Shown piece by piece: positions 3,853 to 10,413 of a stretch of 10,817 nucleotides of DNA (the first letter of the stretch is position 1; every line of letters begins with the position of its first letter). This stretch comes from Candidatus Thorarchaeota archaeon. GTDB lineage: Archaea > Asgardarchaeota > Thorarchaeia > Thorarchaeales > Thorarchaeaceae. The notes beneath the pieces are model-generated. The model worked only from the letters and a program-made list of their open reading frames with translations, was not told the origin of the DNA and did not search any database. Made by a program: the position numbers and the translations under genes. The stretch spans positions 1 to 10,817 of the forward strand of contig JBHLRP010000081.1 in assembly GCA_048882485.1 (NCBI GenBank), given 5' to 3'.

Positions 3853-4224
3853 ATGTGGATTAAGCGGTTTGATGACTGTGAGGAGATAGTGGCCCTGGAT
3901 GGGACAATACTTCGAGAACTTCTCAACCCTCGTCATGACAAGGAGGACCTGAAGCTCGACTATAGCATTGCTCATGCTATTGTAAAACCAGGTGAGGCAT
4001 CCTTTCCACACAGATTCTTTGAGGCCTCTGAGGTCTATTACATTCTGAGTGGGATAGGACGAATGCATGTCGACGAGAGTTCAACAGAAGTAGGCCCTGG
4101 AGACACAATGTATATCCCACCAAAAGGAATCCAGTACATCGAGAATAATGGATTAGAGGACCTAGTGTTTCTCTGTATCGTGTATCCATCGTGGCATCCA
4201 GATGCAGAAGAGTTGGTCGAGTAG
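3853..4224 (+). CDS. Cupin domain protein (single-domain Cupin_2, mannose-6-phosphate isomerase-like archaeal family)
   Basis: ORF 3844..4224; ATG 3853 is preferred over TTG 3844. Cupin motif 1 PGEASFPHRFFEASEVYYILSGIG and motif 2 GPGDTMYIPPKGIQYIEN. Confidence 0.88.
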   Translation: MWIKRFDDCEEIVALDGTILRELLNPRHDKEDLKLDYSIAHAIVKPGEASFPHRFFEASEVYYILSGIGRMHVDESSTEVGPGDTMYIPPKGIQYIENNGLEDLVFLCIVYPSWHPDAEELVE

Positions 4225-4379
4225 ATTCTCACCGCTTTGTCGCGCCATCTTGAAACTGCACCCCCGTCTTAAAAGCCCGGAATTCAACCAGACCTAGAAA
4301 GGTCTCATATGCATAGAATAGCTGATTCGGCAGAGGGCATCCTCTTAGATACTCTTTTCATATTTTCACTATAGATGTA

Positions 4380-5300
4380 TCATTCCGGTTGAAAGGGGAC
4401 ACAGAGAGATGTCGGCGCTCCAACTATTCTCTTCACCTTTTGCATGTTCAGAAGGACACCCCAGATGATTAGGAAGAGAATAGTGGAGAGGAATGGTAGC
4501 ATGTTTAGGAAGGCAGTTGGCACACCTACCCCTTGAAAAGCGTACCGAAGAACACTGAAAGCTCCGAAGATATAACTCCCTACTAGACCCCCAACAGGAT
4601 GCCATAACCCAACAACTACCAACGCAATGACAATCCAGCCCCGTGCAGTTGTTATGCCTTCAACCCACATTGGAATCCATGCAAGAGTCAGGTATGCTCC
4701 ACCGAGACCACACATCATCCCTCCAAAAACCACGCTAAGGTATCTAATTCGGACCACGTTAACGCCCTGAGTATATGCAGCCATTGGATTCTCTCCAACG
4801 CTTCGTATCATTAGACCATAGCGTGTCCTGAAGAGAATAAACCAAAGAACTGGGACCATTATATACGAGAAATAAACGAGTATGTTCTTGTCAAAGAAGA
4901 TTGGGCCAATAATCGGAATTGCACTCAGACTAGGAATTGCAATGGACCCAAATGGCACTATTGGTATGCCAATTAGACCAAGGCCTAGAATGCTACTCAG
5001 CCCTGTTCCAAGGATTGTCAGTGATATCCCTGAAACAACCTGATTTCGATTGAAGGTGATGGTCACTATTGCGTGAACGAGTGCTAGTAGACCACCTACT
5101 AGTGCTCCAACTAGTGCCCCTATCAAAAGACTACCTGTTGCATGTGCTGCCGCAAAAGCTCCGGCTGCCCCTGAGATTACCATTCCTTCCACACCCAAGT
5201 TCAATATGCCAGAGCGTTCGGTCACCATCTCACCTAAAGTTGGAATCAGGAAAAAGGTGGCAGTTATCACAATCTGGGAACCTGTATGTTCAATCGTCAC
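4380..5300 (-). CDS. ABC transporter permease (BPD_transp_2; nucleoside/simple-sugar importer, NupC-like)
   Basis: LGEMVTERSGILNLGVEGM, RTRYGLMIRSVGENPMAA and GRGW-like ARGWIVIALV motifs; multiple TM helices. GTG start with GGAGGT RBS; overlaps the upstream permease by 11 nt. Confidence 0.92.
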   Translation of the reverse strand: MTIEHTGSQIVITATFFLIPTLGEMVTERSGILNLGVEGMVISGAAGAFAAAHATGSLLIGALVGALVGGLLALVHAIVTITFNRNQVVSGISLTILGTGLSSILGLGLIGIPIVPFGSIAIPSLSAIPIIGPIFFDKNILVYFSYIMVPVLWFILFRTRYGLMIRSVGENPMAAYTQGVNVVRIRYLSVVFGGMMCGLGGAYLTLAWIPMWVEGITTARGWIVIALVVVGLWHPVGGLVGSYIFGAFSVLRYAFQGVGVPTAFLNMLPFLSTILFLIIWGVLLNMQKVKRIVGAPTSLCVPFQPE

Positions 5301-6483
5301 GACGCAACCTCCCTTCTACTGTAAATCTAAGAAAGAATTCTGCAACAAGTACAAAGAACAGAATGGCACCGTTGAATAGATTCACGACACCAAAGGGCAT
5401 TCCTGCAGCCTGTATCTCAATACCCCCAGCTAGAAGTGCTGCGAAGAATAGCGAGCTAAAGATGACTCCAATGGGATTGAGTCCACCAAGCCATGCTACG
5501 GCAATTCCTGTAAATCCAAGCCCTGTGGATATTTCCATCCGTAGCCGGTAGAGATTCGGATTACCCGCAACCTCACTCACTCCAGCAAGACCAGCTAGAC
5601 CTCCAGAAAGCAGTACAGTTATTATCGCAACTTTGAGAAAACTCATTCCCGTCGCCTCACCCGCCTCCGGGTTTTCCCCCATCACATTGATCTCGTAGCC
5701 CAGTTTTGTTTCTGTGATACCTTCTTTGGTTCTCACAAGATATTGGTAGATCAGAAGCGTCAACACGACCGCCACAAAGATGGTCAGATGGATTCTTGTT
5801 GTGCCGGGGATTAACGGGATTCGTGCTGCGTCGGGTAGCAATGGTGACTGAGGAAAGCCCCAACCCTCTCGATCTCGCCATGGACCGGTTACAAGGTATT
5901 CTACTAAATATAGAGCAGGGAACACCAATAGAAAACTGATCACTACATCTGATCCCTTGAACTGACTCTTTACTCTGAAGATTGCTATAGGCAGTGCCCA
6001 AAGAGCGCCTGCTGCAAAGCTTGTCAGGAACATGAGTGGTATCAGAAGTGCGCTTGGCAACTCCGGAAAAGCGAATGCGACTCCCGCAGCTGCTATGGCT
6101 CCGACGATTAGTTGGCCTTCTGCGCCAATATTGTCAATCTTAGCTCGAAATGGTATTGCCAGACCTATGGCCACCAATAACAATGGAATGAAACGGGAGA
6201 GTGTCCCGATTATTCCATACCTAGTGAAGAACGCAACTCCAAAGATTTCAAGATAGAGCTCTAGCGGGTTTTGTCCATAGGCAAGAAACACAAAGGCGAC
6301 CGCTAGCAGTCCGAGAAACAATGAAATTATCCTAATCCCGACTGCCCTCTCAAAAGTGAGTCTAGAAGACCGCTGCTTAAAACGAATCTCAAAGGGCCAG
6401 AGTTTCTTTTTCAGATGGCCTAAAACATCTTTGAGTCTATTCCAAGCAACACTGAGAGTGGTCAAAGAGCCCTCATTGCTCAT
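5290..6483 (-). CDS. ABC transporter permease (BPD_transp_2; nucleoside/simple-sugar importer, NupB-like)
   Basis: NIGAEGQL, LGYEINVMGENPEA, SGGLAGLAG and GFTGIAVAWLGGLNPIG motifs. The ORF runs to 6528, but ATG 6483 (MSNEG...) has a GGAGGAG RBS and an 11-nt overlap with the ATPase stop, so it is the preferred start. Confidence 0.92.
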   Translation of the reverse strand: MSNEGSLTTLSVAWNRLKDVLGHLKKKLWPFEIRFKQRSSRLTFERAVGIRIISLFLGLLAVAFVFLAYGQNPLELYLEIFGVAFFTRYGIIGTLSRFIPLLLVAIGLAIPFRAKIDNIGAEGQLIVGAIAAAGVAFAFPELPSALLIPLMFLTSFAAGALWALPIAIFRVKSQFKGSDVVISFLLVFPALYLVEYLVTGPWRDREGWGFPQSPLLPDAARIPLIPGTTRIHLTIFVAVVLTLLIYQYLVRTKEGITETKLGYEINVMGENPEAGEATGMSFLKVAIITVLLSGGLAGLAGVSEVAGNPNLYRLRMEISTGLGFTGIAVAWLGGLNPIGVIFSSLFFAALLAGGIEIQAAGMPFGVVNLFNGAILFFVLVAEFFLRFTVEGRLRRDD

Positions 6484-8071
6484 GCTGGCTCTCCTCCATT
6501 GGACCCAGGGAGTCAGCAACATATCCACCCATCATGAGACCGACCTGTTCTCTAGTTGCATCTTCCGATGAGAGGGTTCCAATAATCTCACCCTTGTAGA
6601 TAACACTGATTCTATCACTCAGGGTTAGAATCTCGGTTAAATCGCTAGAAACCAGAAGAATAGCAGTTCCCGAGTCACGTTGTCTGAGAAGCTCTTCACG
6701 AACAAACTGGGTGGTCGCCACGTCCAATCCGGATGTTGGATTCTCAGCAATTAGGAGATGTTTTAGGCCTTGTTTTGGTTTACGTGAGATCTCCCTTGCA
6801 ACGACGACCTTCTGCTTATTTCCACCTGACAAACTTCTCATTGGCGCCAACGGACTAGGGGTGTCTACTGAGAACTGCTCAATGAGTTTGTCTGTTAGAC
6901 TGACAATTGTCTCGTGATCAATGAGGGGCCCTTTCGAATCGGAGTAGTAGCTCATCATTAGATTCTCTCTTACTGAGAGATCTAAAACCATTGCCTTCTT
7001 TCTATTCTCGGGAATGTATGATACACCAAGATTCCTGATTTTGGCAATGGACATGTTAGTGACATTCATTTCGCCAGTATCCGAATGTAATATGACCGCA
7101 CCGGATTTTATATCCCGCATATGCACAATGGATTCGAGCAGCTCCCTTTGACCGTTACCTGCAATCCCGGCAAGACCGAGGATTTCTCCACTTCGTACAT
7201 CGAGGCTGATATTGTTCACAACTTGCATTCCCATATCGTTGTCAACACAGACATCTCGGACCTGCATCACAATTTGCCCTTCTTGCAGCTTTGTTCGTTT
7301 CAGGTCATACAATGCGTCACGACCCACCATTAAGCGAGCAAGCTCTCGAACACCCTTACTCGGATTGGCCTTCAATTGTTGGACCCATTCTTCGTCGAGC
7401 GTGTCAACCACTTGACCTCGTCTTAGAACGGTTATCCTATCGCTTATTCTGATTGCCTCCTCAAGGTGATGAGTAATAATCACTATTGCCTTTCCCTGAG
7501 CTTTCAATGACTCAAGAAGTGCGAAAAGGCCATCAACCTCAGGTGGAGTCAGCATAGAGGTTGGTTCATCAAGAATGATTATTCTTGGATCGGTTATTAG
7601 GGCCTTAAGTATCTCAACACGCTGTTTCTCTCCGCCTGAGAGCTTCCATACAGCCATTTTTGGGTCTAGTTCACCTAGGTCAAATTTCTGCAATGCCTCT
7701 CTTACTGCATCTTCTACCGCATCTATGGATAGAAGAAAGCCCTTTGTTAAACTCAGGACATTTTCTGCAACAGTGTGTCTTTCAATCAGAGTGCGGGAAA
7801 GGTCCTGATATGCAATCCCTATCCCATGTTCAAGAGCGTCACGCGGTGTCTTTAGATCGAGTTCCCTACCTTCTATAATTACAGATCCACTGTCTGGTCT
7901 TCGACACAGATTCATGATGAGTGTGCTTTTTCCTGCGCCGTTTTCACCAAGAAGGGCATGAATCTCTCCCTTTCTAAGCTTGAAATTGACATTGTCATTG
8001 GCACGGATTTCTACTTCACCCTCTCCGTAGAAGGTCTTGCAGACTTCTCGCATCTCTAGTGCAGTTTCCAT
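6473..8071 (-). CDS. ABC transporter ATP-binding protein with two fused NBDs (CUT2 family, NupA-like)
   Basis: NBD1: Walker A GENGAGKST, LSGGEKQRVEI, Walker B IIILDEPT, H-loop ITHH. NBD2: degenerate Walker A GIAGNGQ, LSGGNKQK, NPTSGLDV. RBS GAGGAGG. Confidence 0.95.
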   Translation of the reverse strand: METALEMREVCKTFYGEGEVEIRANDNVNFKLRKGEIHALLGENGAGKSTLIMNLCRRPDSGSVIIEGRELDLKTPRDALEHGIGIAYQDLSRTLIERHTVAENVLSLTKGFLLSIDAVEDAVREALQKFDLGELDPKMAVWKLSGGEKQRVEILKALITDPRIIILDEPTSMLTPPEVDGLFALLESLKAQGKAIVIITHHLEEAIRISDRITVLRRGQVVDTLDEEWVQQLKANPSKGVRELARLMVGRDALYDLKRTKLQEGQIVMQVRDVCVDNDMGMQVVNNISLDVRSGEILGLAGIAGNGQRELLESIVHMRDIKSGAVILHSDTGEMNVTNMSIAKIRNLGVSYIPENRKKAMVLDLSVRENLMMSYYSDSKGPLIDHETIVSLTDKLIEQFSVDTPSPLAPMRSLSGGNKQKVVVAREISRKPKQGLKHLLIAENPTSGLDVATTQFVREELLRQRDSGTAILLVSSDLTEILTLSDRISVIYKGEIIGTLSSEDATREQVGLMMGGYVADSLGPMEESQHEQ

Positions 8072-8150
8072 GGGAGCCTCCTCTGTGTTCTTAGGATTTC
8101 TTTACGGGAAGATGTGATATTTCAATGATAGGCTTGGACACAGCAATTGC

Positions 8151-8183
8151 GAAAAAGAAAGAAACGGGGGATTGCAATCCCCC
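8151..8183 (-). terminator. Hairpin plus U-rich intrinsic terminator or processing site after the binding-protein gene
   Basis: Perfect 18-bp palindrome GGGGGATTGCAATCCCCC (8166-8183), 11 nt after the stop codon. On the - strand it is followed by GTTTCTTTCTTTTTC. Confidence 0.8.
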
Positions 8184-8194
8184 TACAATGCTCA

Positions 8195-9415
8195 CTAGGG
8201 TGCAACTGGTATGGTTCCAATGACCCCTTCGACAAACCAGTCTATTGTCAGAAGAGTCCCCATGTCAGCACGTTCTCCATCTGCCAGCCACTGTGTTCCA
8301 TTCTTGTAGTTCATTGGTCCAGAGTATGGATCGAAAACAACATTGGGATTCTTCATCTGTGCTATCCTTGCCATGACAAGGTCGTATACGCTGATGGTGC
8401 CTAGAAGGGGATCTGTCACATCGATGGCCTTGAGGGCATCCTCAAACAAGGGGTTGATTGGGACTCCAAACTCGCCGCCAAGATCGATACCGCCCTCTTG
8501 TAGCAACCAGAGATAGTCGACATTTTCAAGATTTGTGTTAGTGTATTGACCAAGGTATATCTTCTGGATTATGTCATCGTAAATCACGCCCCAGTCAGCC
8601 AACTGACCACTAATGGTGCTCGTTGGCGCATAAGACTGCATAGGTGAATAGTGACTGAAGACATACACACCATCTGTCCCGTTTGCTACAAGTGGCACAG
8701 CTGTGGAATCCTCGGTGAAAGCAAGCATGTCAACACCATCTCCCACGAGTTCATTGGCTGCAGTGGTGGCTGCCTCTGGATCAAACCAGTCTGTCTGAAG
8801 CCATTTCACATCAACTGTAGCCGAGGCATTGACTTCTTTCGCGCCAATAGCGAATGCGTTGATGTGTCTGATAAGCTCCGGAAGCGGAAATGCTGCAACA
8901 TAACCTAGTTGCCCTGACTGGGTGAGTGCACCAGCCATCAGTCCGTTCAGATAGTAAAGCTGATAGAAGTCTGCAAAGTAGGTACCTACATTATCACTTC
9001 TTAGATACCCCGAGCAATGGAAGAATATCTTATCCGGATGCCGACTTCCAGCTGCAATTGTTGCATCCATGAAACCAAAGGATGTCGTGAAGACAACATC
9101 ACAGCCTTCATTTTCAATTAGAAAGTCTATCTTTTCTCCTGCTTCAGCCTCATCTACCGATTCCAAATACGTTGTGTTGAGCCAATCGTACTTGTCATCA
9201 ATATATCGTCGTCCCACATCATGGGCATTGGTCCAACCATAGTCGCCTATTGGTCCGACATAGATGAAGCCAGCCTTCAGAGTTTGCATAGCAGGTCCCC
9301 CATCACCTCCATCATCTGGGGGTACGCTGAAAACAACAAAGCCAGCTCCAAGACCAATGCCGACACCCACTATTAAGAGAATGATGGGCACGACAACCGT
9401 TCTTGTACTACTCAT
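8195..9415 (-). CDS. BMP family (PnrA/BmpA-like) ABC transporter substrate-binding protein, probably for purines/nucleosides
   Basis: KAGFIYVGPIGDYGWTNAHDVGR, VFTTSFGFMD, YLNGLMAG and LGYVAAFPLPELIRHINAFAIGA motifs. N-terminal hydrophobic anchor with no lipobox Cys. RBS GAGGAGTGAT at 9421-9430. Confidence 0.93.
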   Translation of the reverse strand: MSSTRTVVVPIILLIVGVGIGLGAGFVVFSVPPDDGGDGGPAMQTLKAGFIYVGPIGDYGWTNAHDVGRRYIDDKYDWLNTTYLESVDEAEAGEKIDFLIENEGCDVVFTTSFGFMDATIAAGSRHPDKIFFHCSGYLRSDNVGTYFADFYQLYYLNGLMAGALTQSGQLGYVAAFPLPELIRHINAFAIGAKEVNASATVDVKWLQTDWFDPEAATTAANELVGDGVDMLAFTEDSTAVPLVANGTDGVYVFSHYSPMQSYAPTSTISGQLADWGVIYDDIIQKIYLGQYTNTNLENVDYLWLLQEGGIDLGGEFGVPINPLFEDALKAIDVTDPLLGTISVYDLVMARIAQMKNPNVVFDPYSGPMNYKNGTQWLADGERADMGTLLTIDWFVEGVIGTIPVAP

Positions 9416-9570
9416 TCAAAATCACTCCTCTTCATGCACAGCATGGACTGAGGTCTTGTTTCTCAGAACAACCTCTAACAAACCATGGCATCTCACGCCT
9501 AAATATCTTGTCAGAACTGCTCAATCAATCATTTGAATGAAAGAAACGACTGAATCCCCAAAACGCAGGA

Positions 9571-9793
9571 AAGCCGCTCAAGTCTTAGCTCCAACAGAGG
9601 TCGATTCTTCTCGTCCAGTCGGGCTACCTTTTTCGCGCCTTATACTATCGAACTAGTATTTCGACACATAGCCTAACCATTCGCCAACCTGTTCTTGTAC
9701 CGTCTTTATCGCTTGATCACTTTCGGTTGGGTCCGTGACCTAGCTCGGTACGAAGAGCCCAGACGCTATTGGTAGGCGCCTCTTGAGCGGCTT
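9571..9793 (-). ncRNA. Candidate structured non-coding RNA (~223 nt), class unknown
   Basis: 12-bp perfect terminal helix (9571-9582 with 9782-9793), five internal stems and a 6-bp pseudoknot. About 8 G-U pairs work on the - strand only. TATA-like TTATTA at -24..-29 and a U-rich tail. No ORF-track ORF overlaps it. Confidence 0.6.
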
Positions 9794-9816: not shown

Positions 9817-9822
9817 TAATAA
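9817..9822 (-). promoter_or_regulatory. Putative archaeal TATA box for the candidate ncRNA
   Basis: The - strand reads (CC)TTATTA, ending 23 nt before the first base of the terminal helix (9793), which is canonical archaeal spacing. Confidence 0.45.
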
Positions 9823-9927
9823 GGTCTGAGATGTCTGCACATATCTGAGTTTAGGTACTAGAATTACTCCATTTCGCAAATATCTGAACATTGATAGGAT
9901 GGACATGTAAGTTCCTGATCGATTTTG

Positions 9928-10413
9928 ATGAAGGTCTTCAAACCTCTGGTTGCATTTCTGACTCTGCTCGTCATAACATCGATAATTGCTGGACTGCTAT
10001 TCCCAGATGTTGTTTCGGTTCTGAGCTATTCTTCAACGATGTTTCTCATGGTATGCTTTGCCAATGCGGCACACTTCCTTGAAGAAACCTACACAAAAGC
10101 ATGGGAGGTCGAAGGTCAACTCAGAATGAACCCCGATGGCACTCCAAAGGAATCACTCTATGACAAGGCATTCTTTGTGACATTCTCACATTCCATTGTG
10201 CTCCTGAGTTTCTTGTTCTATTTCCCCATTGCCAATGGTGATTCTTGGGCATTGCTATTCGGTCTGGGTGTATCATTCAATGGCATCCTCAACGGAGCGG
10301 TCCATCTTGGAATCCTTGCTAAATTCAGGAGGAACACAGGGGTGGTTTCAGGGCTTTTTCAATTGATATTTGGCTCCTTAGTAATAGCTTCCCTGTTTAT
10401 TCCCATTCTGTGA
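9928..10413 (+). CDS. HXXEE domain-containing integral membrane protein
   Basis: AHFLEE (HxxEE), NGAVH (NxxxH) and a YNPG-like RNTGVVSG motif; about 5 hydrophobic helices. TTG 9925 or ATG 9928 start. Confidence 0.78.
   Translation: MKVFKPLVAFLTLLVITSIIAGLLFPDVVSVLSYSSTMFLMVCFANAAHFLEETYTKAWEVEGQLRMNPDGTPKESLYDKAFFVTFSHSIVLLSFLFYFPIANGDSWALLFGLGVSFNGILNGAVHLGILAKFRRNTGVVSGLFQLIFGSLVIASLFIPIL

Follow-up and report, generated by a model that had tools for sequence, protein, structure and literature searches.

The window examined here, a 10,817-nt stretch of DNA from a Candidatus Thorarchaeota archaeon, carries on its minus strand a predicted non-coding RNA gene of about 234 nt (9560–9793). The gene extends from A9793, a start predicted from the TATA spacing, to a U-tract; it is matched by a covariance model, R1, and shows covariation. 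It is flanked by two variable neighbors: a gene for a BMP-family ABC substrate-binding protein (8195–9415, minus strand), which starts 144 nt downstream on the same strand and lies outside the system, and a divergently oriented gene for an HXXEE-like membrane protein (9925–10413, plus strand). Positions 4380–9415 of the window and related loci form a conserved neighborhood reaching from the MvhD side to the cupin/acyl-CoA dehydrogenase side. Cargo genes, this ABC operon included, change there on both sides of the RNA, and this type of neighborhood may be an insertion hot spot. At 204–2489 the window also encodes a protein of 761 aa that has coiled and winged-helix-like stretches and, at its C-terminus, a 4Fe-4S dicluster domain, with no other Pfam match.

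We assessed folding on both strands of the element. The minus strand folds with -82.3 kcal/mol and a z-score of -4.08, the plus strand with a z-score of -3.36. A scan of the element with the Rfam 15 covariance models returned no match at E≤10, which places it outside the Rfam families, and a scan of 18 relative loci comprising long, one-arm and two-arm forms gave none at E≤1. ARAGORN detected neither a tRNA nor a tmRNA in the element. A canonical RNase P RNA (162.7 bits, contig C110) and a full-length SRP RNA match (90.3 bits, contig C58) are found at separate loci of the same genome. Since separate copies of both exist and neither model matches the element, a divergent RNase P or SRP RNA was rejected, in agreement with the preliminary description, which by eye had seen no features of tRNA, tmRNA, SRP or RNase P RNA. 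Long open frames on the RNA strand are almost absent among the homologues.

BLAST recovered relatives in 14 of 61 genomes. With R1 we obtained 63 matches. They are spread over 47 of 86 Thorarchaeota-family genomes, none of which has more than two, and the mean identity among 35 non-redundant copies is about 58%. One copy (L012:130–357, genome G009) has its 5' part, the 5' strand of the terminal helix, swapped for unrelated sequence with the rest intact, and is either a truncated gene or an assembly join.

Structure models were scored on an alignment of 14 homologous sequences by the percentage of paired cells and the number of pairs with double changes, counts that ignore kinship. All complementary segments named in the preliminary description are indeed present where it placed them. 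Its model gave 85.5% paired cells and double changes in 28 of 62 pairs, compared with 90.1% and 42 of 72 for our revised model. Both the terminal helix P1 (95% paired, double changes at 6 of 12 pairs) and the CCAACC/GGUUGG pseudoknot, PK1 (95% paired, double changes at 3 of 6 pairs), covary, and at one PK1 pair A-U, U-A and G-C types all occur among the homologues. Covariation likewise supports the GGUCA/UGAUC stem and the long 3' arm. PK1 had been drawn as a simple H-type pseudoknot across an A-rich linker; this part of the proposal did not hold, because the supposed linker belongs to a long arm, as its 3' strand. Three hairpins of the first model were also abandoned: AGGCGC/GCGUCU (84% paired, ensemble probability 0.02), GGCUC/GAGCU (73%, 0.0) and GGACGA/UCGACC (67%), each with a single double-change pair. 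The disfavored hairpins are replaced by a GUACCG/CGGUAC pairing with an ensemble probability of 0.98. A CCAAUAG/CUGUUGG pairing is seen by covariation only and has probability 0 in the single-sequence ensemble. The GUUCGA loop pairs with 9604–9600 to form a second pseudoknot, PK2, absent from the first model; it is 92.5% paired in the alignment and 93% in the orphan copies described below, and its support is weaker than that of PK1 because double changes are few (one pair in the alignment). A UCUG/CAGG pairing proposed by RNAalifold was discarded in favor of the covarying PK1 and the 39–110 pair, with which it competes. We also rejected, on inspection by eye, a pairing between the 3' tail and the internal CAGG, because it lacks covariation.

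According to covariation, the fold consists of a closing helix in three parts from which two kinked arms extend; a pseudoknot closes each arm. All elements are read on the minus strand. P1a pairs 9793–9782 with 9582–9571 and P1b pairs 9772–9766 with 9597–9591 (double changes in 5 of 7 pairs). P1c, which closes the two-arm junction, pairs 9763–9761 with 9611–9609; it is 98.6% paired in the orphan clade, with compensatory variants in distant members. Arm A (9759–9690) contains the stems 9759–9753/9696–9690, 9751–9746/9702–9697, 9744–9743/9712–9711 and 9740–9736/9719–9715 together with a purine-rich 1×8 hinge (9710–9703). PK1 (9730–9684) joins its loop (9730–9725) to 9689–9684 directly 3' of the arm base, and the same knot covaries in one-arm forms. 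Arm B (9683–9612) contains the stems 9683–9682/9613–9612, 9679–9671/9624–9616, 9667–9663/9639–9635 and 9659–9654/9647–9642, an A-rich hinge (9634–9625) and the loop 9653–9648, which forms PK2 (9653–9600). Each arm thus has an asymmetric A-rich internal loop and a tip loop that pairs with sequence just 3' of the arm base; the secondary structure suggests that the arms bend at the A-rich hinge. One hinge pattern occurs in both arms in 32 of 63 copies, and this common motif suggests that the two arms arose by duplication. The conserved 3' tail (9570–9560) ends in four U residues and is probably a terminator or the 3' end. The U-rich tail noted earlier is therefore borne out by the conserved U-tract at 9563–9560, but not by the later U-rich stretch that had been taken as the 3' end.

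The TTATTA element noticed at -29 to -24 corresponds to a TATA box (9817–9822, minus strand), and both TATA box and U-tail keep fixed distances from the RNA among the homologues. The flanking genes vary from locus to locus. This bears on the possibility that the element is a cis-acting riboswitch of the BMP/ABC transporter operon. It does lie on the same strand 144 nt upstream, and the single sequence allows other pairings to be drawn, but these hairpins lack covariation. Only 5 of 63 copies have the BMP gene downstream; most of the genes found there are different ones, and many of them face the RNA. Together with the conserved closing helix, the U-tail and the RNA's own promoter, this leaves the riboswitch scarcely probable. 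A MITE or other mobile DNA hairpin would account for the terminal inverted repeat and the variable flanks. We found a single copy in this genome and never more than two in a relative instead of many dispersed copies, the G-U pairs and the pseudoknot covariation point to RNA, and the conserved promoter lies outside the inverted repeat. Copy number and covariation thus largely refute the mobile hairpin, to which we assign next to no probability. The lack of an Rfam match, the fixed TATA box and U-tail, the changing flanking genes, the single copy in this assembly (G000) and the separate RNase P and SRP loci support the original proposal of an independently transcribed, conserved ncRNA. Judged by comparative sequence evidence, the element is a real, folded RNA gene of an archaeal family not described before.

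A protein gene recurs near these RNAs. F0, of 210–240 aa, is located near 22 of the 63 Thorarchaeota copies, in tandem with the RNA or in divergent or convergent orientation. It has no sequence match in Pfam, NCBIfam, PADLOC or the PDB. Its AlphaFold model (pLDDT 90.2) most closely matches XisH (Z 9.8, rmsd 2.9 over 115 residues), and the top fold matches are PD-(D/E)XK proteins. F0 shares its core fold with the XisH-like structures 2okf and 3dnx (Z 9.8 and 9.2), to which it adds a helical hairpin at the N-terminus and an E-x-E-T motif. Conservation of the His, Asp, E-x-E-T, Lys and Tyr positions reaches as far as Sulfolobales-level homologues. The model therefore presents F0 as an unannotated, nuclease-like protein of the PD-(D/E)XK fold, with nuclease activity not certain because Thr stands where the canonical motif has Lys. 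Relatives occur in at least 572 stretches of the species-genome collection, from Sulfolobales and ammonia oxidizers to Asgard archaea, and in 22 of 65 Thorarchaeota-family genomes. The gene is single-copy and evolves slowly, and it commonly occurs without the RNA. In several Nitrosopumilales loci (L247:3220–3350, L252, L253, L258, L259, L246, L251) a tiny Cys/His-rich ORF (about 35–45 aa, by eye), which is conserved, lies downstream of F0 in place of the RNA; its product is possibly a protein partner. Three Bathyarchaeia genomes without an RNA match carry F0 with one internal stop each (G443:C15, G447:C20, G454:C38).

In loci from Bathyarchaeia, Nitrososphaerota and Brockarchaeota a short RNA lies upstream of F0 and head-to-head with it. 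Short and long forms have a closing-helix core motif in common, with G-RAG-YANG-CU on one strand and GGCUUHGA on the other. R2, a covariance model built from the Thermoproteota short forms only, finds the F0-linked Thorarchaeota long forms at E values of 4e-9 to 4e-7 and leaves the window copy unmatched; conversely, R1 finds one- and two-arm Bathyarchaeia forms. Family members measure about 130–260 nt; some have no arm, others one or two, and others again a different middle domain. Hinge and pseudoknot recur, with covariation, in the one-arm form (91% paired, double changes in 27 of 45 pairs, six sequences). In one Thermoproteota subtype (L123, L136, L141, L142, L158, L191, L235) a middle domain with a conserved GAU-NNN-AUC-AA hairpin replaces the hinged arms. 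Some Bathyarchaeia F0 promoters (L106, L109, L118, L143, L145) show TGTGCA about 75 nt upstream of F0, as in the window-type RNA promoter, where this element (9836–9841, minus strand) is conserved in the paralogue; genome-wide, TGTGCA is not enriched before TATA-like words.

We then determined how strictly RNA and F0 co-occur. R2 matched 20 of 150 sampled Thermoproteota genomes, all among the 60 with F0, with the RNA head-to-head with F0 within about 350 nt in 18 of the 20; in the Bathyarchaeia class sample it matched 11 of 41 genomes, all among the 23 with F0. These counts include kin genomes and are not independent, and R2 favors F0-positive lineages because it was trained on F0-adjacent RNAs. 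In the other Asgard families F0 turned up in a single genus, and each of the three genomes of that genus has the RNA next to the gene; R1 and R2 gave no further match in the sampled genomes of those families. R2 found nothing clear in ammonia-oxidizer and Sulfolobales-like genomes, and about two thirds of the F0-positive Thermoproteota genomes, including Nitrosopumilus, Aramenus and Sulfolobales, have F0 without a detectable RNA. The pair may therefore not be obligate, with the reservation that filtered genome searches lose true copies (for example in G344), so absence from negative genomes is not established. A narrow arm pattern had no match in metagenomes, which is uninformative.

The core motif follows the linkage to F0. 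Both halves are kept in all 20 F0-adjacent Thorarchaeota copies, whereas of 40 copies with no F0 nearby 6 keep both halves and 28, including the window copy, neither. In the window the 5' half (9781–9773) is degenerate, as is the 3' half (9590–9583), which reads AGCUAAGA in place of the family consensus GGCUUHGA. On a tree calculated without the core columns five state changes are needed, at least four of them forced by well-supported branches; the motif has thus been lost more than once. The window copy, which lacks both the core motif and an adjoining F0 and retains both pseudoknots, falls into a 25-member group from two genera (support 93/78); this orphan group as one clade is not rejected (p-AU 0.126). 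In an unrefined alignment its members are 84% paired with double changes in 48 of 75 pairs. Since the arms and both knots stay paired and covarying, covariation indicates that the orphan RNA is still under selection for its fold. Several genomes of the group possess an F0-linked RNA copy too. F0 was not found in the present assembly (90.5% complete); because close relatives have it beside a second RNA copy, such a copy with F0 may be unassembled here. One 98% complete genome (G027), in which F0 was not found either, holds tandem RNA copies 1.6 kb apart (L077:2501–2744 and 4111–4353), both without the core motif and both with the operator described next.

Over the predicted start of the window RNA (9805–9792) we noticed a 14-bp palindrome with the consensus TTAACWATWGTTAA, a putative operator. 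Genome-wide there are 37 sites with at most one mismatch versus 0.7 expected; 27 are intergenic. Among the RNA copies, 25 of 33 core-less ones have the operator versus 2 of 27 core-bearing ones, and it keeps its place with respect to the RNA even where the divergent gene is a different one. According to Pfam, genes downstream of the sites encode two peroxiredoxins, a ferritin, a photolyase, a DUF255 thioredoxin, a disulphide oxidoreductase and a pirin, as well as an aldo-keto reductase, an aldehyde dehydrogenase, a glyoxalase and START-like proteins (examples in this genome are L278, L282, L287, L288, L289 and L291). The 20 downstream genes submitted to Pfam, among which these are the named ones, were picked from the top-scoring sites with a preference for recognizable genes, so the label "stress" is a reading and not a statistic. 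The motif probably marks a previously unreported stress regulon; repression at the operator would be released under stress. In the literature, including a recent preprint on intergenic clustering, we found no description of the RNA, F0 or the operator, with subscription journals mostly outside the coverage.

RNA and protein could also be substrate and enzyme. F0 would then be an endonuclease dedicated to maturation of the RNA and would cut it in the core, for which a bulge-helix-bulge-like drawing with a 3-bp central helix is possible; the arms would be the functional product, and the window-type RNA would no longer need processing. The core can pair RAG with CUU leaving bulges on both strands, its G/A variation fits pairing to U, and the motif is lost where F0 is not adjacent. 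The core logo was drawn from sequences selected with the motif itself, though, and such a logo cannot tell the RAG/CUU pairing apart from two alternatives, a YNMG-type mini-hairpin and a kink-turn-like junction. The element departs from the canonical 3-4-3 geometry, and tRNA splicing endonuclease appears low in the F0 fold list, its Z of 5.3 being at background level. We regard processing by F0 as improbable.

Another possibility is catalysis by the RNA itself, for example as a reduced RNase P derivative or as a new self-cleaving ribozyme. The compact double pseudoknot would suit a ribozyme, and the core RAG...GGCUUA beside the closing helix resembles, over a short stretch, the P4 helix of RNase P RNA. 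RNase P RNA (RF00373) likewise has a closing helix, and F0-linked members have the GGCUUA-like motif just before its 3' strand, but P2/P3 and the other conserved regions are missing, no RNase P or ribozyme model matches any form, and the canonical RNase P RNA is encoded elsewhere in the genome. Moreover, the sole invariant motif of the family is degenerate in the window copy, and an HDV-like GGCGAAU stretch is not conserved. Catalysis is thus very improbable, and the suggestion of a ribozyme-like RNA gained no support; the linked nuclease-fold gene lends weight to the other early guess, an RNP scaffold.

In overall design the closest known system is the raiA motif RNA (RF03072; PMC12968392), which has one kinked hairpin, P4–P8 and one linker that forms both PK1 and PK2. 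Both RNAs are about 200–250 nt long, have their own gene, a P1a–c closing helix, two pseudoknots and optional peripheral modules, and share a stem with an asymmetric A-rich loop whose tip loop enters a pseudoknot, an analogy at the level of secondary structure only. Here, in contrast, two parallel arms each have their own knot, a P4-P5-P6 domain with a shared linker is missing, and the family is archaeal and linked to a nuclease-fold gene. Membership of the raiA family was rejected: the best match to RF03072 in the genome is at another locus with 11.8 bits, at a cut-off of 101.3.

Type III toxin-antitoxin systems come closest in gene logic, although, like raiA, they differ from the present family in their defining features. 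ToxIN, CptIN and TenpIN are single operons in which short tandem repeats and a terminator accompany the gene for a MazF/Kid-fold RNase (PMC5086642). By analogy, F0 could be a toxic nuclease blocked by the RNA as antitoxin, and the window copy an orphan antitoxin or decoy. Pseudoknotted modules in variable number beside a nuclease-fold gene fit this picture, as do the patchy occurrence of F0 (22 of 65 family genomes, 23 of 41 Bathyarchaeia) and the three interrupted F0 copies, none accompanied by an RNA match. On the other hand, the genes are arranged head-to-head in Thermoproteota and downstream, divergently or convergently in Thorarchaeota, not as antitoxin repeats upstream in one operon; short sequence repeats are missing, and the modules sit within one closing helix. 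F0 models as a PD-(D/E)XK protein, and MazF/Kid folds are not among its listed fold matches, although such a listing may miss a MazF/Kid-like fold. F0 has no PADLOC match, evolves slowly as a single-copy gene and is often present without the RNA, and the F0-linked motif resides in the closing helix, not in the pseudoknots. We consider a toxin-antitoxin pair possible but unlikely.

The neighboring nuclease fold and an RNA size like that of omega RNAs could also indicate an RNA-guided nuclease, with the RNA programming F0 against DNA or RNA targets. In contrast to the OMEGA RNAs of TnpB and IscB, the family has neither a recurring RuvC nuclease neighbor nor a variable guide region: no variable single-stranded segment is available, as the loops are taken up by internal pairing and the short tail is conserved. 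A transposon or array context is missing, and neither F0 nor the exact core pattern was found in viral contigs. An RNA guide is accordingly highly improbable.

What we favor, at slightly better than even probability, is a trans-acting modular RNA that in most lineages is the RNA subunit of an F0 ribonucleoprotein, with the window copy as an F0-independent, stress-regulated orphan paralogue. The adjacent F0 probably binds the RNA; contact with the core motif in the closing helix would yield the ribonucleoprotein, in which the RNA may hold, restrain or position the nuclease-fold protein and the pseudoknotted arms may serve as a compact effector or scaffold domain. The window paralogue would be a stress-induced scaffold or decoy that acts through its arms independently of F0. 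Y RNAs bound by Ro60/Rsr offer a parallel: they have a protein-binding motif in the terminal stem, a variable effector domain in the form of a tRNA-like module, a link to stress and a nuclease partner. A conserved motif in the terminal stem, a variable effector domain, a probable stress link and a candidate nuclease partner recur here; the differences are the absence of a sequence or Rfam match, a neighbor that is not Ro60, and pseudoknotted arms in place of the tRNA-like module.

In summary, the findings point, with a likelihood a little above one half, to an unrecognized RNP present in both Thermoproteota and Asgard archaea: a PD-(D/E)XK-fold nuclease would be bound and controlled by an RNA with zero to two pseudoknotted arms, the RNA having been separated from the protein repeatedly and become stand-alone and stress-regulated in the window lineage. 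Few large structured RNA classes occur in archaea, and they are usually a sign of basic machinery. With a specific candidate partner, a predicted binding motif and natural minimal (130–160 nt) and orphan versions, binding, cleavage and structure are testable in vitro. The analysis also reveals the motif of a probable, previously unreported stress regulon in Thorarchaeota, and the RNA family would provide the first handle on F0, a conserved, unannotated nuclease-fold protein.
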